Shown in pieces: positions 12,882-61,294 of a DNA stretch of 64,000 nucleotides (positions within the stretch are counted from its first letter, which is position 1; every line of letters starts with the position of its first letter). Under the pieces are notes generated by a model, which worked only from the letters and a program-made list of their open reading frames with translations, was not told where the DNA came from and made no database searches. A program made the position numbers and the translations under genes. The DNA comes from Bacilli bacterium (GTDB lineage Bacteria; Bacillota_I; Bacilli_A; RF39; UBA660): contig JAFRIS010000015.1 in the NCBI GenBank assembly GCA_017432665.1, positions 2-64,001 on the forward strand, in the 5' to 3' direction.

Positions 12882-13964
12882 ATGAATAATGGGGTTACAA
12901 CTAATAACAATACACAACAACCAGCACCAGCTAATATAGAAAATACTTTAACTCCAATGGCTGGGGTTAAAATAGCACCTGCTGAAGGTATGCCTGTTGA
13001 TGCTTCTAGTAAAGATGGAGCTCTTAATGCGAATAATAAGCAATCACCAGTTGTGGCAGCACAACAACCAGCCCAAGCTGTTGTTCAACCAACACCAGTG
13101 GCACCACCACAACCACCTGTACAACCAGTTGTTAAACCGACTGAAACACCTCAACCAGTTCAATCTACAGAACCAGTGGTACCACCTGCAAATAATGCAC
13201 CTCAGTTTACTGGCCCACCTGTTAGAAAGAAAAGTGGTTTAACGCCAATTCTATTGATTATTATTTTAGGTTTGGGATTCTATTTGGTTTATTCAACTAG
13301 AACTTATAATGCTAGAATAGAAAACTTAACGTATGAATGTACCCCTGTAACTTCAGCTAAAGAAGATACAGAGTTAGATTTAGATTCTACTTTAGTTAGA
13401 GATTTATATAGTAGAGTAGTAACTAATATTAGAGAAGATTTAGCTCAACCTGAGTTTAATGATAATATGAAAATATATTTAGCTTATAGACAAATACCTG
13501 AAGAATATAAATATGATTCTAATTGTAATTTATTTAGTGGTACTGCTATGGAACCATATAAATGTGAAGTGTCTACTAAATTTAAACCTAAAGCTATTAA
13601 AGAAGAAACTGTACAGTTATATTTAAAGAAACTGTATGGAGAAAAAACGGAAATAGCATTAGCTAATATTCGTCTAGGTAGAAACTCATGTATTGGAGGA
13701 TACCAATATATCGCAAAAAGAGGAGAATTTGTTCAAGGATACTGCTCTTCTGATGTAGCTACTTCATTTAAAGTTGATAAGGAATTAAAGAAAGCAACAA
13801 GCAATAGAAATACTATTATCTTAACTGAAGAAGTAAAATATCATGAAGCTGAAAAACAAGCATTACCAGAAAGTCTTAAGAGTGGAACTTACTATTATAC
13901 ATTTAGATTAGATATGAATTATAACTATGTACTTGTAAGTAAAACATACCAATCTAAGTATTAA
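12882..13964 (+). CDS. Hypothetical membrane-anchored protein with Pro/Gln/Val-rich N-terminal region
   Basis: PAQAVVQPTPVAPPQPPVQPVVKPTETPQPV tract, then TM helix LTPILLIIILGLGFYLVY, then a ~215-aa C-terminal domain. RBS AGGTGAG precedes the ATG at 12882. Confidence 0.6.
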   Translation: MNNGVTTNNNTQQPAPANIENTLTPMAGVKIAPAEGMPVDASSKDGALNANNKQSPVVAAQQPAQAVVQPTPVAPPQPPVQPVVKPTETPQPVQSTEPVVPPANNAPQFTGPPVRKKSGLTPILLIIILGLGFYLVYSTRTYNARIENLTYECTPVTSAKEDTELDLDSTLVRDLYSRVVTNIREDLAQPEFNDNMKIYLAYRQIPEEYKYDSNCNLFSGTAMEPYKCEVSTKFKPKAIKEETVQLYLKKLYGEKTEIALANIRLGRNSCIGGYQYIAKRGEFVQGYCSSDVATSFKVDKELKKATSNRNTIILTEEVKYHEAEKQALPESLKSGTYYYTFRLDMNYNYVLVSKTYQSKY

Positions 13965-13976
13965 AGGAGGATGAAT

Positions 13977-14501
13977 ATGGACATCAAGACTGTAGTAACA
14001 GGGTATTTAGATGAAAATTGTTATTTATTAATAAAGAATGGTACTTGCTTAGTGATTGATCCAGGAGATGACTATAATGATATTAGAAATGAAATAGGCG
14101 ATAATAAAGTAATAGGAGTGCTAATTACTCATTCTCATTTCGATCATATAGGAGCTCTAAGAAATTTCTTAGTAAAAAGAAGTATAAAAATATTCAAAAA
14201 GAGCAATCTGGAAGAAAAAGAATATACTATTGGAGATTTTAAATTTAAGTGTATTTATACCCCTGGTCATTCAAAAGATTCAGTAACTTTCTATTTTGAA
14301 GAAGAAAAAGCAATGTTCCCAGGTGATTTCATATTTAATGAAAGCATTGGTAGATGTGATTTACCAGGTGGAAGTGAATCTGATATGCAAGAAAGTATTA
14401 AAAAGATATTAGAATATCCTGATGATATAGCTTTATATCCAGGACATAATTCAACTACTACTTTAGGATATGAAAAAGAAAATAATCCATATTTAAAATG
14501 A
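13977..14501 (+). CDS. MBL-fold metallo-hydrolase (glyoxalase II-like)
   Basis: LITHSHFDHIG, then TPGHS and D..PG.H motifs. An alternative ATG at 13971 directly abuts the GGAGG. Confidence 0.8.
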   Translation: MDIKTVVTGYLDENCYLLIKNGTCLVIDPGDDYNDIRNEIGDNKVIGVLITHSHFDHIGALRNFLVKRSIKIFKKSNLEEKEYTIGDFKFKCIYTPGHSKDSVTFYFEEEKAMFPGDFIFNESIGRCDLPGGSESDMQESIKKILEYPDDIALYPGHNSTTTLGYEKENNPYLK

Positions 14502-14560
14502 TTATTTTCTTTTATTTTGTATGTATTTATGTTATTATATTAAGTCATAGAGGTGGTTAT

Positions 14561-14863
14561 ATGAAGATTTGGACTAAAGTACATATTAAAGATAAAAACA
14601 AAGATGTAGAGACAATAGCCAAATCATTAACTAACTACTTATATGGATATGGCCCTATATTAGATTTAAGTCGTAAGTATAAGATATTTCCTCAAGATAG
14701 AGCAGAAATAGATAAATATACAGCAGATAGAATAGCAGGTCTTTTGATGCTATATTTATCGAAAGATTATAATAGAATAAATGATATAGTTAATAAATAC
14801 AATATTGATGCTGCTGAACTAAATAATATTGTACCGGAAATTGAAGGCTATATAGAAAAATAA
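14561..14863 (+). CDS. Hypothetical protein (100 aa)
   Basis: RBS AGAGGTGG lies 5 nt before the ATG at 14561. The upstream part of the tracked ORF lacks an RBS. Confidence 0.5.
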   Translation: MKIWTKVHIKDKNKDVETIAKSLTNYLYGYGPILDLSRKYKIFPQDRAEIDKYTADRIAGLLMLYLSKDYNRINDIVNKYNIDAAELNNIVPEIEGYIEK

Positions 14864-14888
14864 AACATCGAATATTCGATGTTTTTTT
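14862..14888. terminator. Bidirectional rho-independent terminator
   Basis: AAAACATCGAAT/ATTCGATGTTTT perfect palindrome with A-run and T-run flanks. It serves both the + gene and the small - ORF. Confidence 0.8.
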
Positions 14889-14973
14889 ATATATAAATCA
14901 AGACACTGAAAAATCCAATTATCATTGCTAGTAACATAATTACCGCAACTATCTTTATAACTTTATCACTCAC
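14887..14973 (-). CDS. Unannotated 28-aa hydrophobic peptide MSDKVIKIVAVIMLLAMIIGFFSVLIYI (GTG start)
   Basis: Absent from the ORF track, presumably because it is too short. It has its own TTTACT-17-TATAAT promoter, RBS GAGGTGAGG 3-5 nt before the GTG, and a stop codon abutting the bidirectional terminator. Confidence 0.55.
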   Translation of the reverse strand: MSDKVIKIVAVIMLLAMIIGFFSVLIYI

Positions 14974-14993
14974 ATGCCTCACCTCATGTACTA

Positions 14994-15022
14994 ATTATAT
15001 AGTATTTAGCTAAAAAAGTAAA
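14994..15022 (-). promoter_or_regulatory. Putative sigma-A promoter of the small peptide gene
   Basis: On the minus strand: TTTACT, a 17-nt spacer, TATAAT, 20 nt upstream of the GTG. Confidence 0.5.
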
Positions 15023-15069
15023 TTCTTTTTATTGAATAATAAATTTATATAAAAACTGTCAATTTACAC

Positions 15070-18781: not shown

Positions 18782-19675
18782 TTATTCATCTTTTTTACTC
18801 CTCAAATGATATTCATTATAATCTTCTATTACTTTTTCATCACTTACTTTAGTATATATCTTAGTAGTAGATATATCAGAGTGACCTAGCATTTCTTGAA
18901 CACTTCGAAGATCTGCTCCTCTATTTACTAAATGGGTCGCAAAACTATGTCTCAAAGTATGAGGAGAAATATTAGAATTTAAACCTTTATCATCTAAAAT
19001 GCTTTTTAGATTCTTAAAGAATCCTTGTCTAGTCATACCTTGACCATGGTTATTCAGAAACAACTTATTACAAGGCTTTTTCTTTAATAATAAATGTCTT
19101 CGATCAACATATTCTTTTAAATAGTAAATTGAATACTCTCCTAGTGGAATATCTCTTTCTTTACTACCTTTCCCAAGAATTCTAATTAAACAATTATTTA
19201 TATCAATATCATTCATTTCTAGATTAATTAATTCACTTACTCGTAAACCACATCCATACATTAATTCTAACATAGCTTTATTTCGATAGTCAAATGGCGT
19301 TTCTAGTTTAATATCAAGTAAATTGTCAATATCTTCAACACTTAATGCTTTAGGTAATGCTTTCTTTAATTTGGGACGTTCTATAAATTCAGAAACATCT
19401 TCTTTAACTAGTTTTTCTTTTAGTAAATATTTATGAAAATTCTTAATTACAGTTAAATTATGAGCTATAGTAGTAGTTTCTTCTTCATTTCTTTTTTTTA
19501 AAAAATCTTTAATATCATCACTACTTATATTATTAATATTAGTAATATGTTTTTTGTTTAAATAATATTTATAAACTTCTAAATCATTTTTATATGATAC
19601 TTTAGTACGATCAGATAAACCTTTTTCAAAGATACAATAATTTAAGAAATCTTCTATTGCAGTTTCTATATCCAT
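18782..19675 (-). CDS. xerD: Tyrosine recombinase XerD-type
   Basis: HTLRHSFATHL...GADLRSVQEMLGHSDISTTKIYT catalytic region at ~297 aa. Adjacent to deoB, as in B. subtilis ripX-drm. RBS AGGTGA precedes the ATG at 19675. Confidence 0.8.
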   Translation of the reverse strand: MDIETAIEDFLNYCIFEKGLSDRTKVSYKNDLEVYKYYLNKKHITNINNISSDDIKDFLKKRNEEETTTIAHNLTVIKNFHKYLLKEKLVKEDVSEFIERPKLKKALPKALSVEDIDNLLDIKLETPFDYRNKAMLELMYGCGLRVSELINLEMNDIDINNCLIRILGKGSKERDIPLGEYSIYYLKEYVDRRHLLLKKKPCNKLFLNNHGQGMTRQGFFKNLKSILDDKGLNSNISPHTLRHSFATHLVNRGADLRSVQEMLGHSDISTTKIYTKVSDEKVIEDYNEYHLRSKKDE

Positions 19676-19751
19676 ACTAATCACCTATTATAATTATAAC
19701 ATTATTTTTACAATAATTCTAATCTTTGGTAAAATATAAATGGTGATTAAT

Positions 19752-45289: not shown

Positions 45290-46165
45290 CTATATTTTTT
45301 CTAAAATTAAATCTATCAATTCTTGATCATAATATACTTCTATTCCACTTTTAATAATACTAATATCAAATTTACTAGCACATAATTCTTCTCCATCTAT
45401 ATTACAAGAAACCATTTTAGGAGATTTTATAGTAAGCTTATCAGTCTGTAATACTTTTATTTTAGGATAATATAAATGAAGAGCATCTTTCATGCTATTA
45501 ATCATTCTAGCCATCCCATATTTATTAGTTTTATAGGCTAATACTACTTCTAATATACCATCAGTAAGAGAACTATTAGGAGATACTTTATATCCTCCTC
45601 CATAGTATCTTGCATTGCAAACAGCTATTGTAGTGAATGTTTCTCTAATATATTGATCATTTATATCAACTTCAAAATATCGAGCTTTATATCTTAAAAA
45701 ATTAACTAATAAACTCATTTTATAACGATACTTTTTTGGTAGCATTTTACTATGAACAATATCAATATTATTACCTATTTCTGCATCTATTCCAAAACAA
45801 GCTATATTGATAAAATATTTATCATTAATTTTAACTAAGTCTACTCTATTTATTCCTTTTTTTAATAATTCTCTATTAGTACGATAGAAATCATTCCCAG
45901 TACCATAAGGAATATATCCTAAAACATTATTAGTACCAGCAATAGCATTTAAAACTCTATTTATAGTACCATCTCCACCTACTGCGATAATAATATTACG
46001 AGATTTAGAATATTTTTTTAAAATACTTTCAGTAGTTACAGTAATACTATTTATTTCAATAACAAAGTCTAATTTTTTCTTTTTACACACTCTTTCTATT
46101 TGTTTCTTAATAATATTAGTCTCTGTCTTTAAACTAAATTGATTTAATAAGAAGATATATTTCAT
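45290..46165 (-). CDS. Diacylglycerol/lipid kinase family protein (DagK/YegS-like)
   Basis: IIAVGGDGTINRV, PYGTGNDF and C-terminal NIDGE. RBS AGGTGGTG precedes the ATG at 46165. Confidence 0.8.
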   Translation of the reverse strand: MKYIFLLNQFSLKTETNIIKKQIERVCKKKKLDFVIEINSITVTTESILKKYSKSRNIIIAVGGDGTINRVLNAIAGTNNVLGYIPYGTGNDFYRTNRELLKKGINRVDLVKINDKYFINIACFGIDAEIGNNIDIVHSKMLPKKYRYKMSLLVNFLRYKARYFEVDINDQYIRETFTTIAVCNARYYGGGYKVSPNSSLTDGILEVVLAYKTNKYGMARMINSMKDALHLYYPKIKVLQTDKLTIKSPKMVSCNIDGEELCASKFDISIIKSGIEVYYDQELIDLILEKI

Positions 46166-46180
46166 AATATCACCACCTAA

Positions 46181-46191
46181 ATTATACCACA
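46181..46191 (-). promoter_or_regulatory. Extended -10 element TGTGGTATAAT
   Basis: Lies immediately after the terminator T-run and 15 nt upstream of the ATG at 46165. Confidence 0.4.
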
Positions 46192-46215
46192 AAAAAGAAA
46201 GTAATAATACTTTCT
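46190..46215 (-). terminator. Rho-independent terminator closing the 46227-54842 operon
   Basis: Minus strand: AGAAAGTA-ttat-TACTTTCT followed by TTTTTT. Confidence 0.75.
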
Positions 46216-46226
46216 CTGTATAGCAT

Positions 46227-46574
46227 TTATTTACTATTTATACCTAACAAATTAGTTAATTTATCAGCAAAACTTTTTCCGAACATTTGTCTAATTGCTG
46301 CGACTAACTCAGTATAATTTTTTATAATGTTATTTTCTAATACATAAATCAAATTTTCAAAATTCTTATCCATAGTTGAAAAAGTATCGTCAAACGTATC
46401 AATAATTGTATTATAATCTAAGCCAGCAACTGAAAAGCATGAAGAACTAGAGTCTAATACTCTTCTAATATTATTATTATATTCATTACTGATAGCTTCT
46501 CTTTGATTCTTTAAAGATGTTAAAACTGTTTTTAATTCTGCAGTTGTAATTGCATTTCCACTATAACTAGCCAT
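46227..46574 (-). CDS. Small all-helical protein, paralogue of the 48937-49275 product
   Basis: 115 aa. Shares the N-terminal LK...L.K.....I...YN pattern and the C-terminal tail F-G-K-S-FADKLTNLLGINSK with the 112-aa protein (FNKTFASELGNLLDINK). RBS is GAGGTGA. Confidence 0.65.
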   Translation of the reverse strand: MASYSGNAITTAELKTVLTSLKNQREAISNEYNNNIRRVLDSSSSCFSVAGLDYNTIIDTFDDTFSTMDKNFENLIYVLENNIIKNYTELVAAIRQMFGKSFADKLTNLLGINSK

Positions 46575-46579
46575 TTAGA

Positions 46580-47254
46580 TCACCTCGAAATTGCACTTTC
46601 TATTGCAGAGATATTCTTAGCTTGATTTTCTTTAACCATATCTCTTGCTTGTTCATATGTACTGCATAATAATTCTAAAGCAGCAATTGTATTAGTGACT
46701 TTCTTATCCATACCAGTTAATTTAGATGTGTAACTAGCACAATCTTCACCCACCCAAGAATTATCAAGTTTAGCAACATTTCTCTTAGTTTCAACTTCCC
46801 AAGAATTTTTTAAAGAGGAAATTGATTTCTTTAAAGTAGCAATAATTTCTTCTAATTGATTATATGTAATATTTAAATCTTGTCCAGTTCCAGGAAGAAC
46901 AACTCCATATTTTGGTTGAATAACACCTGAAGGTGGATTAATCATTACACCATATTTTGGTTGAGGTGGCACATGACTAATTGCGACACCATATTTAGCT
47001 TGAATATAATTATTAAAGTTTCCACTACTTGTAGCAGTACCATAACCCATCTTTCCAGAAAATTGTTGTTTAGAATTCACAAGATTTTCTATATTTGGAG
47101 AACTTGCGGTAACTACCGATTCAGAAAAATCGCCATTTGTTTCAAGAAAAGCATCTGCAGTTGGAACAACTGCATTTGCACTATTTTCAACGATTCCAAA
47201 TACAGTTGAATCAGGATTTTTCCATGTAATTTTTGCTACTGATTTATAGGCCAT
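46580..47254 (-). CDS. PKYGV-repeat protein with C-terminal WXG100-like helical domain
   Basis: aa 68-122 read KMGYG...AKYGV...PQPKYGV...IQPKYGV. aa 130-224 are helical with LDNSWVGEDCASYTSKL (W-x-G turn). RBS is AGGAGG. Confidence 0.7.
   Translation of the reverse strand: MAYKSVAKITWKNPDSTVFGIVENSANAVVPTADAFLETNGDFSESVVTASSPNIENLVNSKQQFSGKMGYGTATSSGNFNNYIQAKYGVAISHVPPQPKYGVMINPPSGVIQPKYGVVLPGTGQDLNITYNQLEEIIATLKKSISSLKNSWEVETKRNVAKLDNSWVGEDCASYTSKLTGMDKKVTNTIAALELLCSTYEQARDMVKENQAKNISAIESAISR
46889..47053 (-). repeat. In-frame tandem repeats encoding (P/Q)-x-P-K-Y-G-V units
   Basis: CAACCAAAATATGG(T/A)GT occurs twice, plus GCTAAATATGGTGT. Three perfect KYGV units and one degenerate KMGYG unit. 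Confidence 0.8.
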
Positions 47255-47282
47255 ACTATAATACCTCCTAGTCTACAATATA

Positions 47283-47293
47283 ATATTAACACA
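47283..47293 (-). promoter_or_regulatory. Possible internal extended -10 element TGTGTTAATAT ahead of the repeat-protein gene
   Basis: Lies in the only sizeable gap (49 nt) within the operon, 28 nt upstream of the ATG at 47254. Confidence 0.3.
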
Positions 47294-47303
47294 TAAAAAT
47301 TAT

Positions 47304-48677
47304 TTATTCAACAAAATCTGTTCCCAATATTTCTTTCATACACATATTTGGCACTTTTTCTTTATAATTCCATGTATGAAACGAATCCCCTCTACAATAT
47401 TTAAAACTCTTACATTTTTTACATTTTGCATTAGTAGTTAAGCGTTTTTTTCTAAAGATTTCAAATTTGTTTTCCCAGACATCTACAAAATTGTCTGTTT
47501 TAATATTTCCTTGAACTAACGATTGATCTCTAACGTTTGGACAAACACAGATATCGCCATTAGCTAAAATACTTCCGATAAATAATCCAGCACCACAAAT
47601 GAAACTGTGATCACGTAAAATATTTTCATATTTAAGACCTAAATAATGACTACAGTCATAATCAACTATCATTTTACCTTCTAAACGCTTTTCGCGAATA
47701 AAATTAAACATATATATTAAACCATCTTTATCGAGCAAAATACCATCATTATCATAGGCTCTACCAATAGGATCCACTCCCATTACACGCCATTCTTCAA
47801 TACCTTTATCAAGTAACATTTGATATATGTCTTCTAATTCATTTAAATTCTTTTTGTTCGCAACAGTAGTGATCTGAAGTGATCTTAAAGTTTCTAAACC
47901 TTTTAATAGATCAATAGCTTTCATAATTTTATCGTATGAACCAGGTACTCTTCTAAAACTTTCATGTGTTTCTTTTAGACCATCTAAACTAATAGAAATA
48001 CTTTCCATATTTGTTCGACGGAAATTTTCAATTGTTTTTTCATTAATAAGCATTCCATTTGTAGTAATTCCCCATCTAAAACCTAATCCTACAGCATACT
48101 CCATGATATCAAATAAGTCTTTACGCATTAGAGGTTCTCCACCTGTCACAGTAAGAAAAACATTTTGAGCACCATATCTATTATGTATTTCTAAGAGAGT
48201 TCTTTTTAAATCCTCTGTACTTATTTCGTCTTTAGGTATTTTATAACCACAACTACTTCCACAATGTTCACACTTAGCATTACATCTAAGAGTTACTTCA
48301 AGAAATAAATTAGTTAGAACAGGATTTTCAACATAAAAATTTACTTCATCTGCGATTTGTTCTAAATCTTTCTTTTTTGCTTTTATAACTTTTTTAGTAG
48401 TTTTATTATTTAAATCATTAAAATCATGAGGAGTACGATAAAGTTTATCTCTTTCTAACTTTTCGAAGCACTCTGAAATACTATCTACAAACTTAGTCGC
48501 ATCTTCCAAGGCTCCAATAAATTCTTTTCTATTTTCTCCTTCTAATAATTTATCTGCACTATCTTCTTCACTTTTTATTTCTTTTTTCAACGACTTTAAT
48601 TGCTTCTTTAAATTTTTATACTCTTTAATATCATTGTCATTTTCATTTTCTTGTGCTTGTTTTTCTTTTAGTCTCAT
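47304..48677 (-). CDS. Radical SAM enzyme with C-terminal SPASM domain and ~115-aa coiled-coil N-terminal extension
   Basis: CNAKCEHC (CX3CX2C; DNA 48261-48284), GGEPL, and the C-terminal Cys cluster CSHY...FICGAGLFIGSILANGDICVCPN...CKKCKSFKYCRGDS...NMC. The start overlaps the upstream stop (ATGA). Confidence 0.85.
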   Translation of the reverse strand: MRLKEKQAQENENDNDIKEYKNLKKQLKSLKKEIKSEEDSADKLLEGENRKEFIGALEDATKFVDSISECFEKLERDKLYRTPHDFNDLNNKTTKKVIKAKKKDLEQIADEVNFYVENPVLTNLFLEVTLRCNAKCEHCGSSCGYKIPKDEISTEDLKRTLLEIHNRYGAQNVFLTVTGGEPLMRKDLFDIMEYAVGLGFRWGITTNGMLINEKTIENFRRTNMESISISLDGLKETHESFRRVPGSYDKIMKAIDLLKGLETLRSLQITTVANKKNLNELEDIYQMLLDKGIEEWRVMGVDPIGRAYDNDGILLDKDGLIYMFNFIREKRLEGKMIVDYDCSHYLGLKYENILRDHSFICGAGLFIGSILANGDICVCPNVRDQSLVQGNIKTDNFVDVWENKFEIFRKKRLTTNAKCKKCKSFKYCRGDSFHTWNYKEKVPNMCMKEILGTDFVE

Positions 48678-48928
48678 TCGGCTACCTCCTGGTTATCAAT
48701 TAAATCTTGTTTTAGTTGCCAACTCTCTTTTAATAAATCTAATTGTTCTAAAATAGCGACAATAGTTTTATCAGTGCTTTTAATCTTCTTTATAAACTCA
48801 TCACATAACTCATCTTTCCATGATTGTCGTAGATTTTCTAAATCATATATATTTAAATCATTCCAAATCTTATGGATTTTTTCAGTAGTTTTATCAATAT
48901 TTGCAATTATAATCTCTTTATTTTCCAT
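48674..48928 (-). CDS. Small helical protein, WXG100-like (W-x-D variant), paralogous to the C-terminal domain of the 46580-47254 product
   Basis: 84 aa. LRQSWKDELCDEF aligns with LDNSWVGEDCASY. RBS is AGGTGA. Confidence 0.6.
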   Translation of the reverse strand: MENKEIIIANIDKTTEKIHKIWNDLNIYDLENLRQSWKDELCDEFIKKIKSTDKTIVAILEQLDLLKESWQLKQDLIDNQEVAE

Positions 48929-48936
48929 AAATTCAC

Positions 48937-49275
48937 CTACTTATTAATATCTAATAAATTACCTAGTTCTGAAGCAAAGGTTTTATTAAATAATTCTTTT
49001 ATTTCAACAGAAAGATTTTCATATTCAGGAATAATTTTTGTGAGTAAAAGATTAGTCAATTCTGAAATATCACTATCAAATCTAGTGAATAGTTTTTTTA
49101 ATTCATCACTAATTCCAACAATATCTTCTTTTGATTTAATTAATTCTTTTTGGCTTGTAGTTAATATATCTTTTAATGATTCATTATACAAATCCATTAT
49201 TTCATTTTTTTCTTTAATTAAATTATTAGTTATTTTTCTTAAATCCCCAGTATTAACAATAACTTGATTATTCAT
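48937..49275 (-). CDS. Small all-helical protein, paralogue of the 46227-46574 product
   Basis: 112 aa with the shared C-terminal tail motif. RBS is AGAGG. Confidence 0.65.
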   Translation of the reverse strand: MNNQVIVNTGDLRKITNNLIKEKNEIMDLYNESLKDILTTSQKELIKSKEDIVGISDELKKLFTRFDSDISELTNLLLTKIIPEYENLSVEIKELFNKTFASELGNLLDINK

Positions 49276-49276
49276 A

Positions 49277-50155
49277 TTAAACCTCTATTAATTCATACTC
49301 TCTAGAACCAACGCCAAGTTCAGCTGCCCTTTCAATAGTATGAATACCATTTCTAGAATTAACTCTTTCCATAAAGTGTTCTTTTCCTGAATCATCACTA
49401 TTCATAACGATATCAATACAAGCTTGATCTATAGCCACTGGATCTAGAGAAATTAAAATACCCATATCTTTCATACAAGGATCTTCAGCCTCAGCACAGC
49501 AGTCACAATCTACACTCATATTAGCCATAACATTAATAAATACCATATTACCCTTGAAATAGTCTACTACTGCAGAAGCGGCCTCTGCCATACTTTCTAA
49601 GAAATGATCTTGAGGAGGCAAATTATTCCATAAACTATATTGGTCTTTATTAGTTCCTGCAGAATGAATCCAACTTTTTCCTTCACTAGATGCACAACCA
49701 ATAGATAATTGTTTTAGTGCTCCTCCATAACCTCCCATTGGATGTCCTTTGAAATGTGAAAGTACTAACATAGAATCATAGTTGGCAATATTTTTTCCTA
49801 AATAATCTTCTTTTAAATGTACTCCATTTTTGATAGGAATCGCTAAATCAGGTCCTTCAGCATCCATTAAATCAAAATTAAATAATTTACTCCATCCATG
49901 TTTTTCAATAGTTTTTAAATGCTTTTCAGTAGTATTTCTTTCTCCTGCATAAGCAGTATTACATTCAACAACAGTACCATTAACATAATCAATCATTGGC
50001 TTCATAAATTCTGGTTTTAAATAGTTTTGATTACCTTCTTCACCTGAATGTACTTTAACTGCTACTTTTCCAGTAAGCTCTTTACCAAGTTTTTTATACA
50101 TATCAACTACCTTTTCAGGTGTTACTTCTTTACAATAATATACTTTTGCTTTCAT
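49277..50155 (-). CDS. DUF362 domain protein (putative Fe-S/metal-binding)
   Basis: MKAKVYY...GKVAVKVHSGEEGNQNYLKP...VVECNTAYAGERN is typical of DUF362 as I recall it. Cys cluster VDCDCCAEAEDPC. RBS TAGGAGGA precedes the ATG at 50155. Confidence 0.75.
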   Translation of the reverse strand: MKAKVYYCKEVTPEKVVDMYKKLGKELTGKVAVKVHSGEEGNQNYLKPEFMKPMIDYVNGTVVECNTAYAGERNTTEKHLKTIEKHGWSKLFNFDLMDAEGPDLAIPIKNGVHLKEDYLGKNIANYDSMLVLSHFKGHPMGGYGGALKQLSIGCASSEGKSWIHSAGTNKDQYSLWNNLPPQDHFLESMAEAASAVVDYFKGNMVFINVMANMSVDCDCCAEAEDPCMKDMGILISLDPVAIDQACIDIVMNSDDSGKEHFMERVNSRNGIHTIERAAELGVGSREYELIEV

Positions 50156-50174
50156 ATTATTCCTCCTATCAATA

Positions 50175-53100
50175 TTATAACACAAATTTATCAGTACTAT
50201 CTAATACAGGTTCTTCTTCATTAATCATACTGGCAATTTCTTCATTAGATTTTACATTTCGTAAATAGTTAGTAATTACTTCTTTCATTTTTTCATAGCC
50301 ACTAGAATCCATTTTGTGAGAAACAAACTCATCATGATTTTTACCTATTTTTCCTTCGAAGTTTTCTCCAAAATCCCAGATTTGATAATTTTCTTTGAAT
50401 TCTTCAAAATCTTTTGATCTGTTTGCAGCTTCTAAGAATGATAAACAAGCATCATAGAATGAACCACCATTTTGTAATATCCAGTTTTCTACTCCTACTC
50501 CTCCTAGTCCACCTTCAGACGGATTGGAAAAATGTCCTTTATAACAGTGAGCTTCTTTTAAAACCTTTTTAGCTAAAATAATATTAGCTACTACTAGTTT
50601 ATACTTTTCTTCTCCATATTGGTCTCTAATACTCTCTAAACGGTCCTTTAAGCAAAGATCAGTAGTATATTCAATACCATCAGTCTTAGGTGTAAAAGAA
50701 ATATCAATATCAATTGTATCAGCTATTTCACCAGGATTAACGCCACTAAATCTAAAATCACCTTTATTAGTAATCTCAACAGTACCACCATTTTCAAGTA
50801 TTTTTTCTTTTATTGCGACTTTTAATTTTTCTATTAATACAGTATTTTTAAAAATATTAGTATCTAGACGCATCATATAATCAAAATCACTATCATTTGG
50901 TTTATTAGTACCTCTACCAGTAGAACCAGTATCAATTAATTCTGAGAAACCAAATGTAATATCTTTACTTAGATAAGGTCGTAATTCACGGATACCTTGT
51001 TCTTTACAAACTTCTTCTATTACAGCAAATATTATTTGTTGAATAGCAGCAACATTACTAGCATTGTCATCTAAAGATTTAGCAATTTCAACTATTTCAG
51101 GAGTTTCTAAATTATCAGATAATTTGTATTCAGGACATCCCAAATGGGATAATCCTTGCATTTTACTTCGTAATTCTAAATAATCATCATAAGTAAATAT
51201 CAAATTATTATCAGTATCTACTACTGGTATATATACTCCTTTACGAGCTAATTCATAACCAATTTGCTTATTAGGAATTTCTGTAACAATATGGTCAATA
51301 TAACCTATTGGGAATCCCGTACGGATACCAAAATGTTCTTCTGTACCAGTTCTAAACAATTCATAGTTTCGCATATTGTCTCTAATTCTCTTAGGTAATT
51401 CTTTATTCTTATTTTCCATATCACGTGATTCAAAAAATTTATCACTTTTTAAAACAAAGTATATTGGTCCATGTGTTGCGGCAGGAGTAGCTGAAACGCT
51501 CTCTACAAAAGACCCACCCTTAGCTATCTTTATACAGTCAGTATCTAAAGGGGTGTAATCAGTATTGGCATCACAACCCAAGAATTCTTGAGCTACACTA
51601 CCATTATCTAGAATACGTCCTAAGAATTTAATATCACCAATTCCTTTGATTAAATCACCAGCTTTAAGAGAAAAATCAGTTTTATCTTTATTTCTTTCTG
51701 TAATAGAATCTAATGCTGAATCAATAATTCTTCTAGCATCTTCAACGCTTTCAATACCTGCGAAGTAACAATACATCTTTACAATTCTATCTGCTATTGA
51801 ACTAGAATTATCAACTTTTAAGAACTTACTTAAATTCTTAATATTTTCAATAGGATCATCCACTTCTACAAATTCATCTTTATTAGGCATTCTACTGTAG
51901 TTATAGATGGCTTTTAAACACTCAGAAAATTGCTTTAGCAAATGAACTTGATCTAAAGATAATGGTCCATATAATTCACCAGTTATTATTTCTCGATAAA
52001 GTTTTTCTCCAGCTTCAATATTATCAAGATAATCAACAAAATCTGTATTAGCTGATTCTAAATTAATTCTAATTAAATCAGCAAATATAATAGCATCTTT
52101 TATTTCAGGATGATCTTCATACTTTTTTAATACTGGTGACATACGATCAAAAATTGGCATATCAGGATTAATAGTCTTATAGACTAAAAATCTTTTACCA
52201 AAACCAGGGATATGATTACTAGCAAATATTTTTTCAATAGTATCAAACTTTTCTAAAGGATCATCTACATATAATAATTGTCTTTCTAATTCAGTTCTAA
52301 TTCTAACTAATTCAGAAGAATTAGCATAAGAGATTCTATTAAACAATTCTCCTAAAATCGCAATTCTTTCTTCAGTTAATTCATGATAATTTTCTCTAAT
52401 AAAATCCCTAAATTCTTGTTGCGAATTTTCATCATCTTCACGGATTTTTTTATACTGTTCCATGATTAAATACTTTCTTCTATTATCTTCTTCTCTAGTT
52501 TTCCCTTCAAGTTGTAAATCAGCCATAAATAACATATCATGATTACCGAATGCTATATTTGTTTCACTAAAGTATTTAATATTCTCTTCAGTATATACAA
52601 TATATTTACCATAAAAAGCATCTTTTAGTTGAGGAGATACACTATCAGAACAAAACATTTCTGAATGACTTTTAAATACTTCTCTATAAGTTTCATCGTA
52701 TTCTTCTCCATTTAATACCATCTGATAGGCATTTTGTTCCATGGCTTCATAAGAATGATTATGAGCTCTTGAATCTAAAAATTTACCATAGATTGGAGCT
52801 AACTTATAAAATTCTTCTTCAGACAACGTACTATGAATTTTTCTGGTCATTGCTCTATAATCTTTTTGTCTTAGTATTTCAACTAATTCAGGATTTTCCT
52901 TTATGATTCTAGCACCCAATTTACCTTCCATTAAAATTCTTCTAATATAATTATCCGATATATCAGAAAAATCAAATTGTGGATAGCGTTTAATCATTTC
53001 CTCATTTAATACTATCCAATCTGCGTTTTTATAGTCATCATGTCCTATGTAATCATCATAAATTGCCTTATAAAACTGATTTTGTACTTCTTCTTCAGAT

Positions 53101-54842
53101 TTAGTAAAATCAAAATCATCTTCATAAAGAATAGTTTCAAAAAACAGCATGTTTTGATTTAAGAAATTTAAAAAGTTTTCATTTCCAAATCTCTCACAAT
53201 ATTCTCCAACAAACCAAATGTTTTTAGAAAACCTATATCTAATATCATGAGTACATAGATACTCTCTTTGTTCAGTAGTTAAATATTGTATTGTTGCACA
53301 ATTAGTTATATATTGAATTTTTGAAAATTCCTTAGGCACAATTAAATCTGGACTTATTTTTGAAAAATCTGGCACTTCAGACAAACGATTTGAGTCATTT
53401 AAATAAGTCTCTATCATCCATCGAACAAAATCTTCATATCTAGGTGGTTTATGAAATGGAATACGGTTATAATTATCAATTAGACGTTCAATAAAGCCAC
53501 TTTCATAAATTTCTTTATATAATTCATACATATTAGATTCTTGACTAAATCTATATAAGTTACCCGCTCCTACTCTATCAATTACATCTTGTGAATCAAA
53601 ATCTTTAATTATAATATGTTCATAATCTTCTAATTCGCTTGGATCAGGTATGTCAAAAACAATTTTAGTAAACATTTCAGAGAAACCTTCTGGTATTTTT
53701 GATCCAGCCATACCTTCTGTTAAATACTTACGAACTTCAGCACGAAGTGTATCTTCTATCCTATTAGGATTAAAATCAGTAGAATAATCTAATACTTTAG
53801 GAGCGTTTTCATTGCTAAATAACGCATGCATAAGTTGTGGATATTTATTATTTAATTCAATTACTTTTTGATATCCAATTTCTTCATACATCTTAGCAAA
53901 ATTATTTGGTATTTTGTAATCAACAGAAAAATCATATTCTAATACTGTAAATATTTCTTGATTATTAACTAAATCATCATAAGTTAATGTTCCTTTATAA
54001 TATCTATCTATTAAACCTTGATCGGTAGTATAATTTTCAATAAAAATTGTTTTAAAAGTACTTTTAGTCGCATCGGATTTACCTAAAAGTTCAAAAGCAA
54101 AAGATTCTCTTAATTCTTGATTTATATGATTCATTATTTCCTTAACATCAAATCTATCAATAAGTTCTTGATTAAGAAAACTGATATTATTAATAATTAC
54201 TAAGTAAAAATTTGGATCTTCTTTATAAGCTTTAATTGCGGGTTCTACACCGTATGAATTAATAAATCTATGTAATTCAAAATCTCTAACATATCGATGA
54301 TTTCTAGAAAATTTAGCTATTTGTTCAGGAGAAAATCCAATTAAATCTTCTATTACACATTGACCATTTAAGTATTTTTGTCTAAATTCAATATCAAAAC
54401 TATCATCTAAGAAAACATCCGGATGATTTCTAATGGTTTCTTCACCAAATACTTGACGAGATATTTCAAAAGTAACTCTTTCTCCTTCTAACGTATTTAA
54501 ATATTGATAATTAATAATATTACAATTTTCAAAATTAATATTTGCAATTTCTAAATAACAACCCAAATCTAATAAGTTTATTGTTGCATTAGTACCATTA
54601 AAAGAAATACTTTTATCTTTTGGAACAAAAATAACAAAATCATATTCTGTAGAAGGAATATCACTCAAGTCATAAGAAGTTAGTTCTTGCAATAAAGGAT
54701 ATATTGTATTTCCATATTCCTCAATTAATTTTAATGCTTGAGTATCGTCAACGTTATCAGAATCAGCAAATATTCTTTCATTTTCTGCATTAATTTTAGA
54801 AACTATTTCTCGAAAATGTTCTAGAGTTATCTTTTCCCTCAT
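50175..54842 (-). CDS. 1555-aa cytoplasmic protein with C-terminal Pol-beta-superfamily nucleotidyltransferase-like region; remainder unassigned
   Basis: No signal peptide or TM segment. ELIDTGSTGRGTNKPNDSDFDYMMRLD (DNA 50880-50927), then TIDIDISF, then ILAKKVLKEAHCYKG...GGLGGVGVENWILQNGG. RBS is AGGAGAG. Confidence 0.6.
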   Translation of the reverse strand: MREKITLEHFREIVSKINAENERIFADSDNVDDTQALKLIEEYGNTIYPLLQELTSYDLSDIPSTEYDFVIFVPKDKSISFNGTNATINLLDLGCYLEIANINFENCNIINYQYLNTLEGERVTFEISRQVFGEETIRNHPDVFLDDSFDIEFRQKYLNGQCVIEDLIGFSPEQIAKFSRNHRYVRDFELHRFINSYGVEPAIKAYKEDPNFYLVIINNISFLNQELIDRFDVKEIMNHINQELRESFAFELLGKSDATKSTFKTIFIENYTTDQGLIDRYYKGTLTYDDLVNNQEIFTVLEYDFSVDYKIPNNFAKMYEEIGYQKVIELNNKYPQLMHALFSNENAPKVLDYSTDFNPNRIEDTLRAEVRKYLTEGMAGSKIPEGFSEMFTKIVFDIPDPSELEDYEHIIIKDFDSQDVIDRVGAGNLYRFSQESNMYELYKEIYESGFIERLIDNYNRIPFHKPPRYEDFVRWMIETYLNDSNRLSEVPDFSKISPDLIVPKEFSKIQYITNCATIQYLTTEQREYLCTHDIRYRFSKNIWFVGEYCERFGNENFLNFLNQNMLFFETILYEDDFDFTKSEEEVQNQFYKAIYDDYIGHDDYKNADWIVLNEEMIKRYPQFDFSDISDNYIRRILMEGKLGARIIKENPELVEILRQKDYRAMTRKIHSTLSEEEFYKLAPIYGKFLDSRAHNHSYEAMEQNAYQMVLNGEEYDETYREVFKSHSEMFCSDSVSPQLKDAFYGKYIVYTEENIKYFSETNIAFGNHDMLFMADLQLEGKTREEDNRRKYLIMEQYKKIREDDENSQQEFRDFIRENYHELTEERIAILGELFNRISYANSSELVRIRTELERQLLYVDDPLEKFDTIEKIFASNHIPGFGKRFLVYKTINPDMPIFDRMSPVLKKYEDHPEIKDAIIFADLIRINLESANTDFVDYLDNIEAGEKLYREIITGELYGPLSLDQVHLLKQFSECLKAIYNYSRMPNKDEFVEVDDPIENIKNLSKFLKVDNSSSIADRIVKMYCYFAGIESVEDARRIIDSALDSITERNKDKTDFSLKAGDLIKGIGDIKFLGRILDNGSVAQEFLGCDANTDYTPLDTDCIKIAKGGSFVESVSATPAATHGPIYFVLKSDKFFESRDMENKNKELPKRIRDNMRNYELFRTGTEEHFGIRTGFPIGYIDHIVTEIPNKQIGYELARKGVYIPVVDTDNNLIFTYDDYLELRSKMQGLSHLGCPEYKLSDNLETPEIVEIAKSLDDNASNVAAIQQIIFAVIEEVCKEQGIRELRPYLSKDITFGFSELIDTGSTGRGTNKPNDSDFDYMMRLDTNIFKNTVLIEKLKVAIKEKILENGGTVEITNKGDFRFSGVNPGEIADTIDIDISFTPKTDGIEYTTDLCLKDRLESIRDQYGEEKYKLVVANIILAKKVLKEAHCYKGHFSNPSEGGLGGVGVENWILQNGGSFYDACLSFLEAANRSKDFEEFKENYQIWDFGENFEGKIGKNHDEFVSHKMDSSGYEKMKEVITNYLRNVKSNEEIASMINEEEPVLDSTDKFVL

Positions 54843-59885: not shown

Positions 59886-60317
59886 TTATTCAACAATACA
59901 AGAATTTTCATATTCAATTACATAATCTTTAATATTATATGAATGATCACTAAACCATTGTTCTGCTTTTTCCTTAGCTATTGCTGGATGTTCACAATTA
60001 GATATAGCAATTATTATAGCTAATTTTTTATCATCATTAATATATGGGTAAAACGAAAAATCAGAATCATCTACTTTTAGTAATTCATCATAAATTGTGT
60101 ATGATTCCATTATTTGATCATCATCATTACCATTCAATTTATCACATACTTGATGCATTTCTTCTTCTGTCTTAAATGTATAAGTCATATCTTTTTCATA
60201 ATCATAACACGAGTACTTATCTTTATTTACATTATTAATCAAAACAAAAACTATTATGAATACTATAAATGTCATCAAAAACACTACTATAGGAATTATT
60301 TTCTCTTTATTCTTCAT
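59886..60317 (-). CDS. Membrane-anchored hypothetical protein with four Cys
   Basis: RBS AAGGTGGG lies 7 nt before the ATG at 60317. The ATG overlaps the upstream TAA by 1 nt (TAATG). TM segment IIPIVVFLMTFIVFIIVFVLI. Confidence 0.5.
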   Translation of the reverse strand: MKNKEKIIPIVVFLMTFIVFIIVFVLINNVNKDKYSCYDYEKDMTYTFKTEEEMHQVCDKLNGNDDDQIMESYTIYDELLKVDDSDFSFYPYINDDKKLAIIIAISNCEHPAIAKEKAEQWFSDHSYNIKDYVIEYENSCIVE

Positions 60318-61294
60318 TATTTTACCCACCTTATAAGTTGATATAACCTCATACTTGCATTAGATTTAGCAGAATATGTCATCATAGTAGAACATTTATA
60401 ATCATTACAATTATTGGTAAATCTATGCCCACCATCAAAGACAACAGCACTACCAGTACTTTTATTAACACTGTAAATAGAGAAAGTATGTGCCTTAACA
60501 CCAATTATATCTCCTGGTTGTATTATTCCTTTTTGAATGGCAGTTTTAACATTCATAGAACCATCAAATTTATATTGCTTTGTATATTGGGTAATTTTTC
60601 CTTTATATCCTTGAAATCCTCCATAACCAACAGAGTTCACAACTGTACGTTTTCCTAATACATCGGTAAGTCCCCAATTTGTTGGAACTACACATGTAGT
60701 AGCAACTAATCTTCCACTTTCTGCTGCTTTAATAGCTTCAGCCCAAGTCCTTTTTGAATCACCATAATTATATTCTACTCTAGGATGATACTTAGCAATA
60801 GCGTCACTTAATCGTTTAGAATTATTATAATTACTAGTTAAAAATCTATTACAGTATTCCAAATTACCACATGAAGTAATAGGAGTATCTACACCACTAT
60901 AACTACTATCACCACCACTTACACTAGGATCATAACCATTAGGATCAGAAATAATAGATTGCCTATTTCCTGGATGTGGATCAATATAAGTTGGTTTTAA
61001 ATTAGGTTTAGTGGCACTTTTCCAGCAAGAACTAATTTCAAAATTATTACCTAGTAAAGCCATACTTACATTAACAATAGTTGGAATCATAAATAAAACT
61101 ATTAGAGCTATAATGCTATTCCTAATCTTACTAGGAACTTTTTTCTCTTCAGGATTTTTAACTAGCATTGTAAGATTAATAGTCAAACTAATAATAGCTA
61201 GCATCGGACCAACTATCCAAATAATATTTAATACATTTTTAACCATGTATAAAAAACTGGCTAAAACTGCATTATTACAATCAACTAAAATCAT
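60317..61294 (-). CDS. Two-TM membrane protein with extracytoplasmic Cys/His domain (possible papain-like NlpC/P60- or CHAP-like hydrolase)
   Basis: Two N-terminal TM helices. C-terminal ATTCVVPTNWG...GVKAHTFSIY...FDGGH. The family call is only an impression. Confidence 0.4.
   Translation of the reverse strand: MILVDCNNAVLASFLYMVKNVLNIIWIVGPMLAIISLTINLTMLVKNPEEKKVPSKIRNSIIALIVLFMIPTIVNVSMALLGNNFEISSCWKSATKPNLKPTYIDPHPGNRQSIISDPNGYDPSVSGGDSSYSGVDTPITSCGNLEYCNRFLTSNYNNSKRLSDAIAKYHPRVEYNYGDSKRTWAEAIKAAESGRLVATTCVVPTNWGLTDVLGKRTVVNSVGYGGFQGYKGKITQYTKQYKFDGSMNVKTAIQKGIIQPGDIIGVKAHTFSIYSVNKSTGSAVVFDGGHRFTNNCNDYKCSTMMTYSAKSNASMRLYQLIRWVK

Follow-up and report, generated by a model that had tools for sequence, protein, structure and literature searches.

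A 64,000-nt stretch of a contig from a Bacilli bacterium (hereafter the window; G+C content ~27%) carries on its minus strand a compact gene cassette built around a radical S-adenosylmethionine (rSAM) enzyme with a SPASM domain. Sister metagenome-assembled genomes (MAGs) of the source genome come from the rumen of goat, yak, and cattle. The conserved unit consists of five genes, which encode a 112-aa protein, an 84-aa protein, the rSAM/SPASM enzyme, a 224-aa protein, and a 115-aa protein. Spliceases excise tyramine (−135 Da) from X-Y-G sites, leaving an α-keto-β-amino acid, and the enzyme of the window is probably a splicease acting on the 224-aa protein; we put the probability of this assignment at about 0.6. 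The assignment is made because the proteins encoded beside the enzyme and its homologues carry tyrosine-glycine (Y-G) motifs, because the residue preceding the Tyr varies freely, because the enzyme is of the SPASM type, and because there is a parallel in CtA, a cargo protein of the transporter PCAT1.

Conservation of the gene cassette

The neighborhood comparison covered the top 80 genome loci encoding rSAM homologues and several metagenome contigs (loci are given below by their L numbers). The order 112 aa, 84 aa, rSAM, substrate, 115 aa recurs in L003, L004, L075, and L088, of which L075 and L088 carry the cassette in unrelated contexts (in L088 between gap and pgk), and the same parts occur rearranged in L005, L090, and L092, the last with two enzymes and two substrates. 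An initial annotation of the window, made from the sequence alone, had proposed that the rSAM gene is coupled to genes for small helical proteins, and had asked whether rSAM homologues in other genomes also co-occur with KYGV-repeat and 112/115-type genes. Cassette order is indeed kept in several relatives, and the co-occurrence is found, in the same order, in L003, L004, L075, and L088. The initial annotation had also drawn the unit as seven genes that included a 1555-aa giant protein and a DUF362 protein, and this delimitation has to be given up. The giant is absent from the nearest relatives, the DUF362 gene and the glycoside hydrolase (GH13) gene upstream of the giant are limited to one lineage, and the five-gene order recurs in unrelated contexts; therefore, the unit comprises five genes.

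Locus L005 contains in addition a second helical module (12920-15056), in which the 84-like protein has 90 aa and the 112-like protein 113 aa; its third member, of 480 aa, combines GLSAEAR-type repeats with the same WXG-like domain at the C-terminus as the substrate. This module has neither an rSAM gene nor Y-G sites, so the helical module is a separable kit. One MAG, RGIG3504 (L004 and L011), encodes two rSAM paralogues, one within a WXG-tailed cassette and one with an RF39-type PQxVYGIP protein and a VirD4-like ATPase.

Tyrosine-glycine motif proteins encoded beside the enzyme

The sole partner of the enzyme that most of the 80 loci have in common is a protein with x-Y-G-[V/I/P] repeats, usually encoded just downstream of the rSAM gene, and the helical proteins are limited to a few small clades. 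The same-strand gene directly downstream encodes at least one Y-G-[V/I/P] site in 46 of 74 cases (62%) and at least two sites in 31 of 74 (42%), against a background of 12% and 1.8%, respectively, among 950 open reading frames (ORFs) at least four genes away. The flanks were compared over 155 sites chosen by the pattern Y-G-[V/I/P], which itself sets the Tyr, the Gly, and the residue at +2, and they read [P/V]-Q-x-[V/K/L]-Y-G-[V/I/P]-P, with a residue preceding the Tyr that varies freely (V, K, L, A, M, or I).

Because the Y-G proteins are the only widespread partner and the helical proteins are clade-limited, the repeat tract rather than the hairpins is the probable target. The expected change is thus an excision of tyramine (−135 Da per site) and not a cross-link of −2 Da. 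A constant Y-G with a free preceding residue also fits splicing better than it fits a cyclophane-type motif. The suggestion in the initial annotation that the enzyme modifies the product of a neighboring gene is most likely correct in view of this motif association; its choice of a helical protein pair as the cross-linked target is disfavored by the presence of Y-G proteins at most of the 80 loci and of helical proteins in few clades.

The proteins that bear the motif differ between groups in size (~65 to 1231 aa) and in the placement of the sites. In the clade of the window, QPKYGV repeats lie in a disordered tract ahead of a WXG-like hairpin. RF39-like Bacilli have KY(D/N)IxPE(D/E)NxPQ(K/E)VYG(I/V)P in multidomain proteins, which account for the upper end of the size range, and Clostridia have KYGV, LYGPP, and EYGI in ~110-aa proteins, between a signal or transmembrane segment and a C-terminal transmembrane helix. 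The motif is ALYGVP in the lipoprotein-like proteins of L066, L068, and L076, and QVLYG(V/A/P) in L031-L033, where it stands between an N-terminal helical domain and a C-terminal anchor. A protein of L032 (7986-9458) has a Y-A site, QVVYAGP.

Several loci encode ATPases near the enzyme. A soluble VirD4/TraG-like ATPase of the CD1115 family (~430-460 aa) is encoded just upstream of the rSAM gene in L007, L008, L010, L011, L014-L017, L019, and L024-L026, and in some of these RF39-like loci the gene for the Y-G protein is also surrounded by genes for an ADP-ribosylglycohydrolase and an M10-like HExxH protein. In L090, a HerA-like ATPase takes the place of the VirD4/TraG-like one. Either kind of ATPase could have an export or coupling function for the modified proteins.

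The radical SAM/SPASM enzyme

Known splicease loci combine an rSAM enzyme that has the CX3CX2C motif and a SPASM auxiliary-cluster domain with an adjoining precursor gene that has conserved X-Y-G sites. The window has both: the enzyme possesses the two features, with C132, C136, and C139 of the CX3CX2C motif and the downstream SPASM cysteines invariant in 23 homologues, and the 224-aa gene next to it encodes the conserved X-Y-G sites. The rSAM core is 47-61% identical across Bacilli and Clostridia MAGs, and most of the homologues are ~365 aa long and lack small helical neighbors. The top NCBIfam model for the enzyme is TIGR04133 (rSAM_w_lipo; 303.8 bits, cutoff 425), which is also the top curated model for every homologue tested, with scores of 290-331 bits for ten relatives, all below the cutoff. 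The next NCBIfam matches, namely AhbD, MftC, NirJ, and various peptide maturases, score at most 145 bits (MftC 139 bits, PqqE 82 bits), and WgkB is also among the matches.

The enzyme differs from most of its homologues by a helical N-terminal extension. According to the profile search, this extension occurs only in rSAM homologues that adjoin a WXG-tailed substrate (L001-L005 and L075), and the same layout is seen in L088-L093. The extension has a weak profile similarity to the family of the 84-aa protein (E 1.4e-4).

The 224-aa probable substrate

The 224-aa protein has 35 homologues, and an alignment of 25 sequences was used for AlphaFold and for conservation. Residues 1-128 are predicted to be disordered. 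Members of the family have 2-6 Q-P-K/A-Y-G-V repeats; the protein of the window has three Y-G sites and a possible fourth, G-Y-G at aa 70-72, and it is the only window protein with such a density of Y-G sites. Searched against PDB sequences, the family profile has its best match in CtA (6v9z_C, 8vp3_D), over the segment VKYGV...IKYGV...IKYGV...PMYGI.

The C-terminal domain appears to be a WXG100-like hairpin. AlphaFold predicts two helices (131-164 and 170-223) with an S-W-V-G turn between them, so both the ~100-aa hairpin (residues 131-223) and the W-x-G turn that define WXG100 proteins are present, and W167 and G169 are invariant in the 25 sequences. The tail matches PF06013 (E 1.3e-4; 22.6 bits against a cutoff of 27.3) and TIGR03930 (E 2.4e-4; 21.3 bits against 44.85), in both cases below threshold, and a few homologues carry precomputed PF06013 matches, some of them flagged as weak or faint. 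The best Foldseek matches are WXG100 proteins: 3gvm of Streptococcus agalactiae, EsxB of Bacillus anthracis (4j41), GBS1074, EsxA/B of T. curvata, and CFP10/ESAT-6. The target TM-scores are 0.74-0.80, at an E-value of ~0.07, which is to be expected of so short a hairpin. Taken together, the profile matches and the predicted structure support a WXG100-like fold of the tail. Two cysteines in the second helix of this domain, C172 and C197, are likewise invariant, and the 84-aa paralogue has a Cys at the position aligned with one of the two; an inter-subunit disulfide and metal binding are possibilities for their role.

The small helical proteins

Both pairs of paralogues recognized in the initial annotation were recovered with significant E-values. 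The 84-aa protein shares 24% identity with the C-terminal domain of its 224-aa paralogue (E 9e-8), and hhalign, with the family profile built from trimmed domains, relates the two at a probability of 96% (E 2.7e-9); the 115-aa protein is 29% identical to the 112-aa protein over 105 aa (BLASTP, E 3e-13). The loop of the 84-aa protein reads W-K-D rather than W-x-G, and its relatives have W-x-D or W-x-G; orthologues are present in L003, L004, L005, L075, L041, L051, and L088.

The 112/115 family, which is syntenic in L003-L005, L075, L088, and L092, forms 187 representative clusters at 50% identity, and a Pfam scan of 50 members gave no matches. In many clusters, low-complexity proteins of 200-580 aa without signal peptides have the domain as their N-terminal module, an architecture that is typical of signal-peptide-independent secretion substrates. 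Among the relatives P0163-P0312, long proteins rich in Ser, Thr, Gly, and Pro often begin with this domain (~110 aa), and its boundary in these long relatives is marked by a conserved F-N-x-x-F-A-x-E-x-x-x-L-L-G-I.

The initial annotation had called all of these proteins WXG100-like. The label is appropriate for the C-terminal domain of the 224-aa protein and for its 84-aa paralogue, and it fails for the 112/115 family. The W-x-G is absent from the 112/115 sequences, their profile finds at best unrelated helical bundles among PDB entries (E 0.015), Foldseek gives matches only at E >5, and hhalign shows no relation to the 84-aa and 224-aa C-terminal families. A WXG100/Lap-like assignment of the 112/115 proteins is not supported, and no relation of the family to WXG100, Lap1, or Lap2 could be detected.

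Comparison with spliceotide pathways and other known systems

Spliceases are rSAM/SPASM enzymes that were first found with Nif11-type precursors (PMC10849128; PMC11414181; PMC11626197). YG-rich ORFs next to rSAM-SPASM genes were the hallmark by which such systems were mined; a census that scored them found systems in 189 genera, with 27 pairs confirmed (as summarized in PMC10849128). The helix that a splicease needs for its activation comes from a Y protein or from the leader of the precursor, and fusion of the helix to the enzyme leads to leader independence (PMC11414181). The spliceotide class also includes protein substrates and binary systems without a recognition element (RRE) of peptides that are made by ribosomes and modified after translation (RiPPs) (PMC11414181; PMC10849128).

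The cassette of the window resembles the PlpX(Y)/PcpX(Y) (type I) and RhaX/RcsX/RasX (type II) pathways in that an rSAM/SPASM enzyme is encoded next to an X-Y-G precursor with a variable X and hydrophobic residues or Pro after the site. Known pathways likewise include protein-sized substrates and binary systems without a separate RRE, and they need a helix for activation or docking of the enzyme, for which the window has candidates (PMC11414181; PMC11626197; PMC10533398; PMC10849128). Validated splice tags are PIRP(L/M)YGLPI and AVAA(M)YGVVFPG, including PIRPLYGLPI and AVAAGYGVVFPG (PMC10533398), and they resemble the QPKYGVV of the window. Unlike the known spliceotide loci, the window has no Nif11/NHLP leader or Y protein, and its enzyme scores below the Nif11-class model. 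Further differences are the WXG100-like substrate tail, the three extra helical proteins, and the ~115-aa N-terminal extension of the enzyme; some relatives have X-Y-A in place of X-Y-G.

No RRE, C39/PCAT, or peptidase was found in the cassette with Pfam and NCBIfam, in agreement with the initial annotation, which had seen no RRE, leader protease, or dedicated exporter, and no PCAT was found in the top 80 loci. The cassette hence lacks what defines a classical leader-dependent RiPP cluster, namely a leader precursor, an RRE, and a peptidase/exporter. A PqqD-like match was likewise absent among the window products (Pfam, NCBIfam), and candidates for an activating or recognition helix are the extension of the enzyme, the hairpin of the substrate, and the 84-aa protein. 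From such absences the initial annotation had concluded that the locus fits neither the template of a RiPP cluster nor that of a type VII secretion system (T7SS) locus, a conclusion that overlooks the spliceotide class with its protein substrates and RRE-free binary systems (PMC11414181; PMC10849128).

A second parallel is offered by the CtA locus. PCATs are among the exporters of spliceotides, and as of 2023 the form that CtA takes on modification had yet to be determined (PMC10885120). The C. thermocellum locus, found in metagenomes as L083/L084 (3941-8168) and identified by 100% identity over a 49-aa CtA fragment used as query, encodes an rSAM/SPASM enzyme (552 aa), PCAT1, and CtA in that order. 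CtA is Cthe_0535, the cargo of Clostridium thermocellum PCAT1 in PDB entries 6v9z and 8vp3. Four [K/M]-Y-G-[V/I] sites follow its GG leader. The rSAM enzyme of this locus ranks TIGR04103 (Nif11-class peptide maturase 3) first with 252 bits, followed by TIGR03913 and by TIGR04133 with 182 bits, and in this it bridges the TIGR04103 and TIGR04133 models. Over the whole core, its identity with the window enzyme is 32%, and the two share C-x3-C-x-H-C-G-S-S-C. CtA is probably a spliceotide itself, and we found no mention of this in the structural literature on PCAT1. In contrast to the window system, CtA has a double-glycine leader and a PCAT exporter, its rSAM enzyme has a C-terminal TPR domain, and there are no WXG-like modules.

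Other systems are more distant. Members of TIGR04133 may pair with a lipoprotein family, as the model name implies, and some Clostridia relatives of the window enzyme similarly have lipoprotein-like Y-G substrates (L066, L068, and L076). MftC and PqqE are, like the window enzyme, SPASM rSAM enzymes centered on a Tyr (at the MftA end ...GVY and in Glu-x3-Tyr, respectively), but they differ from it in their single-site precursors, their dependence on an RRE (MftB/PqqD), and their motifs, and we know of no repeats inside proteins for them. The complexes of WXG100/ESAT-6 proteins and of T7SSb LXG effectors share with the window a ~100-aa W-x-G hairpin, a paralogous small partner, and extra ~110-aa helical proteins. 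Unlike in the T7SSb complexes, the WXG domain of the window is C-terminal to the cargo, no T7SS core genes are nearby, and the Pfam match is below threshold.

In the literature searched, in which the splicease census was not covered, we found no description of a WXG-tailed substrate together with helical partners and an extended enzyme. The combination of WXG-tailed substrate, 84-aa paralogue, enzyme extension, and 112/115 family may thus be a new architecture.

Proposed mechanism

Gene content and synteny, the conservation of the motifs, and the class of fold are shown by the sequences; the chemistry, the docking mode, and export are inferred, as follows. The rSAM/SPASM enzyme would be a splicease-type maturase that works in the cytoplasm and has as its targets the three Q-x-K-Y-G-V sites of the 224-aa protein, which lie in its disordered N-terminal half; at each site a tyramine equivalent (C8H9NO, −135.07 Da) would be cut from the Tyr of X-Y-G and the backbone rejoined. 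The WXG100-like hairpin of the substrate may, on weaker grounds, dock the repeats onto the helical N-terminal extension of the enzyme, and this docking would be the natural counterpart of the activating helix required by known spliceases. The 84-aa and 112/115-aa proteins would be partner or chaperone modules, which probably bundle with the substrate hairpin for stabilization or for export without a signal peptide. The DUF362, GH13, and 1555-aa proteins lie outside the system.

A more far-reaching form of this mechanism is conceivable, and we consider it unlikely as a whole. It envisages a self-activating splicease whose fused hairpin would heterodimerize in the manner of EsxA/EsxB with a WXG follower that replaces leader and RRE. 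The product would be a poly-(alpha-keto-beta-lysine) protein that leaves the cell without a signal peptide, aided by the 84/112/115-aa helical partners, and serves as a multivalent inhibitor of trypsin-like proteases in gut or rumen. On a wider scale, backbone-spliced proteins of membrane-anchored, lipoprotein, and multidomain kinds, made by the TIGR04133-like clade, would be common among uncultured gut Bacilli and Clostridia, and they would include X-Y-Ala sites, which are not known to be spliced.

Weighing the alternatives

Beside the motif association, the observations counted in favor of splicing include the portability of the cassette, which recurs in unrelated contexts such as that between gap and pgk, the co-distribution of the N-terminal extension with WXG-tailed substrates, the placement of the repeats in a predicted disordered region, and the WXG100-like fold of the substrate tail. 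Several points weigh against it. The enzyme scores only 117.6 bits against the Nif11-class maturase model TIGR04103 (cutoff 725), its closest model, TIGR04133, describes a family of unknown function, and below that model it is about equally similar to AhbD/MftC/NirJ and to peptide maturases. By these scores, its clade is placed as a sister of the TIGR04133 members that lacks a curated model of its own. The similarity between the extension and the 84-aa family reaches a probability of 52% only. Export machinery was not found, EssC/EsaA/EssB-type genes being absent from the window ORFs of at least 250 aa. X-Y-A replaces X-Y-G in L088 (11402-12007, YPAYATRP), L090 (8238-8909, SLYAAP), and L041 (8994-9845, PPKYAPAP), and we know of no report of X-Y-Ala as a splicease site. 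Finally, Gln stands at −3 in 100 of the 155 sites, which could instead indicate Gln-Tyr chemistry.

The last two points would suit a different chemistry, in which the enzyme would form a Tyr-centered cross-link within Q-x-x-Y-G-V, either a three-residue cyclophane (Tyr ring to the C-beta of Val/Ile/Pro, triceptide-like) or a PqqE-like Gln-Tyr bond, and thereby a rigid, protease-resistant tract. The frequent Gln at −3 agrees with it, as do the V/I/P at +2, though these are fixed by the selection of the sites, the position of the enzyme outside the Nif11-class equivalog with PqqE, MftC, and WgkB among its NCBIfam matches, and the Y-A variants, which suit a side-chain cross-link more easily than X-Y-G splicing. 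Cyclophane aromatic-X-X motifs, however, accept any middle residue, whereas here Gly or Ala nearly always fills that position and the residue before the Tyr is free, which is the signature of a splicease (PMC11414181); moreover, the enzyme of the CtA locus scores best on the Nif11-class maturase model. We therefore regard a cross-link as improbable.

The locus might also be defined by secretion, as a T7SSb-like or other signal-peptide-independent effector module, for example a surface or competition factor, in which modification by the rSAM enzyme is secondary. The WXG100 fold of the substrate tail points in this direction, and so do the 112/115 domains that head long, low-complexity, signal-less proteins reminiscent of LXG-type effectors; in other clades, the proteins with Y-G repeats have a signal peptide, are lipoproteins, or are anchored in the membrane, so that they seem destined for a place outside the cytoplasm. 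Against this, the WXG domain is C-terminal, unlike that of LXG effectors, and EssC/EsaA/EssB-type genes are found neither among the window ORFs of at least 250 aa, where the initial annotation had already reported their absence, nor beside related loci: no EssC/EccC-type gene lies within ~10 kb of L005, L041, L051, L065, L088, L090, or L092. As the leading explanation, secretion has a slim chance, and it is compatible with tyramine splicing rather than exclusive of it.

That the enzyme modifies the helical hairpins themselves (84 aa, 112/115 aa, and WXG domain), for instance via Cys172/Cys197, to form a covalent secreted or structural bundle, as in the initial annotation, is very improbable: in this clade there is tight synteny between the helical genes and that of the enzyme, and the WXG domain has two invariant cysteines, one of them aligned with a Cys of the 84-aa protein, but most rSAM homologues (>55% core identity) have a Y-G protein and no helical neighbors, and the second module of L005 implies that the helical proteins work without the enzyme.

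Locus layout and neighboring genes

All seven minus-strand ORFs of the initial annotation were found at their coordinates (Table 1), and their spacing was reproduced: from the giant to the 115-aa gene the intergenic gaps are 19, 1, 8, −4, 49, and 5 nt (with the gene-caller ATG at 50155 as the DUF362 start, giving 292 aa), and the GH13 stop lies 17 nt upstream of the start of the giant. The ribosome-binding sites reported before each gene are seen as purine-rich, Shine-Dalgarno-like runs 5-10 nt upstream of every start (AGGAGAG, AGGAGGA, AGAGG, TAGGTGA, AGGAGGT, AGGAGGT, and CGAGGTGA). Both of the reported terminators, after the 115-aa gene and upstream of the GH13 gene, appear on folding as a hairpin with a U-run, the former within a stretch (46180-46226) with a predicted fold of −16 kcal/mol. 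A generic terminator scan recovered neither of these AT-rich hairpins because they have too few G-C pairs. Directly past the cassette terminator and before a gene for a YegS/DAGK-like lipid kinase lies an extended −10 promoter-like TGgTATAAT (46165-46200), which supports a transcript boundary at this position.

Table 1. Features of the cassette and its flanks in the window (nt coordinates, strand, and basis of assignment)
Feature	Coordinates	Strand	Basis
Intrinsic-terminator-like hairpin + U-run, AT-rich, 3' of the 115-aa gene	46190..46215	-	Folding
115-aa helical hairpin protein, last cassette gene	46227..46574	-	AlphaFold (pLDDT 84), two long helices
224-aa probable substrate: disordered N-terminal half, X-Y-G repeats, C-terminal WXG100-like hairpin	46580..47254	-	Homologues, alignment, AlphaFold
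WXG100-like helix-turn-helix domain, aa 127-224, W167-x-G169 in loop	46583..46876	-	PF06013, TIGR03930, AlphaFold, Foldseek
Repeat tract, aa 84-119, three Q-[A/P]-K-Y-G-V sites (Y88, Y101, Y116), predicted splice sites	46898..47005	-	Motif and profile match to CtA
Radical SAM/SPASM enzyme, 457 aa, probable tyramine splicease	47304..48677	-	PF04055 (3.7e-23), PF13186 (2.8e-7)
Clade-specific helical extension at the N-terminus of the enzyme, aa 1-115	48333..48677	-	Profile search and neighbor comparison
84-aa hairpin protein, paralogue of the 224-aa C-terminal domain	48674..48928	-	Alignment, hhalign
112-aa helical protein, paralogue of the 115-aa protein, unannotated family	48937..49275	-	BLASTP, synteny
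DUF362 protein, lineage-specific neighbor	49277..50185	-	PF04015 (9.4e-51)
1555-aa orphan protein	50175..54842	-	Absent from L003/L004
Weak nucleotidyltransferase-like motif, giant aa 1296-1350, GSTGRGT...DSDFD	50793..50957	-	PADLOC 'Cyclase' (CD-NTase), E 9.7e-5, 19.9 bits

DUF362 and GH13 genes flank the cassette only in L001-L004, and DUF362 is absent in L005, L075, L088, L090, and L092. The DUF362 protein had been considered as a dedicated reductase partner and was dropped as a core part, its synteny being confined to L001-L004. In the closest relatives (L003 and L004, with enzymes 79% identical to that of the window), the GH13 gene is followed directly by DUF362, and the giant of the window occupies the exact place of their 30-nt GH13-DUF362 junction. 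Searches of Pfam, NCBIfam, and PDB sequences gave no match for the giant, an HExxH motif is absent from it, and none of the related loci encodes a homologue; by this comparison it looks like a recent single-gene insertion outside the system. As for the nucleotidyltransferase tail ascribed to it in the initial annotation, the GS...DxD motif is present, and a single weak PADLOC match to CD-NTases is its only signal. A role of the locus in anti-phage defense was set aside, as PADLOC otherwise gave only a generic viperin-like similarity of the rSAM enzyme and weak coiled-coil matches. Elsewhere in the window are a gene for a 325-aa protein (60317-61294) with a borderline match to PF18895 (T4SS_pilin; 26.8 bits, cutoff 26.6) and a gene of the Xer/phage-integrase family (18782-19684).

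Implications

If the splicease assignment is true, tyramine splicing extends to a large, unannotated enzyme clade that is widespread among uncultured gut and rumen Firmicutes and has full proteins, not small RiPPs, as substrates. Substrate recognition by a WXG100-like hairpin follower together with a helical enzyme extension would be new for these enzymes. It would also resemble the engineered 'helix-fused' spliceases that are used in protein labeling, and the natural versions would be potential tools. From the Lys-derived ketoamide repeats one would expect secreted proteins that inhibit trypsin-like gut proteases, and the assignment would provide a testable prediction for the modification of CtA, the model cargo of PCAT1. 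Should it be wrong, there is still a highly conserved family of rSAM enzymes, with a Y-G/A target motif that is universal, whose chemistry has yet to be found.

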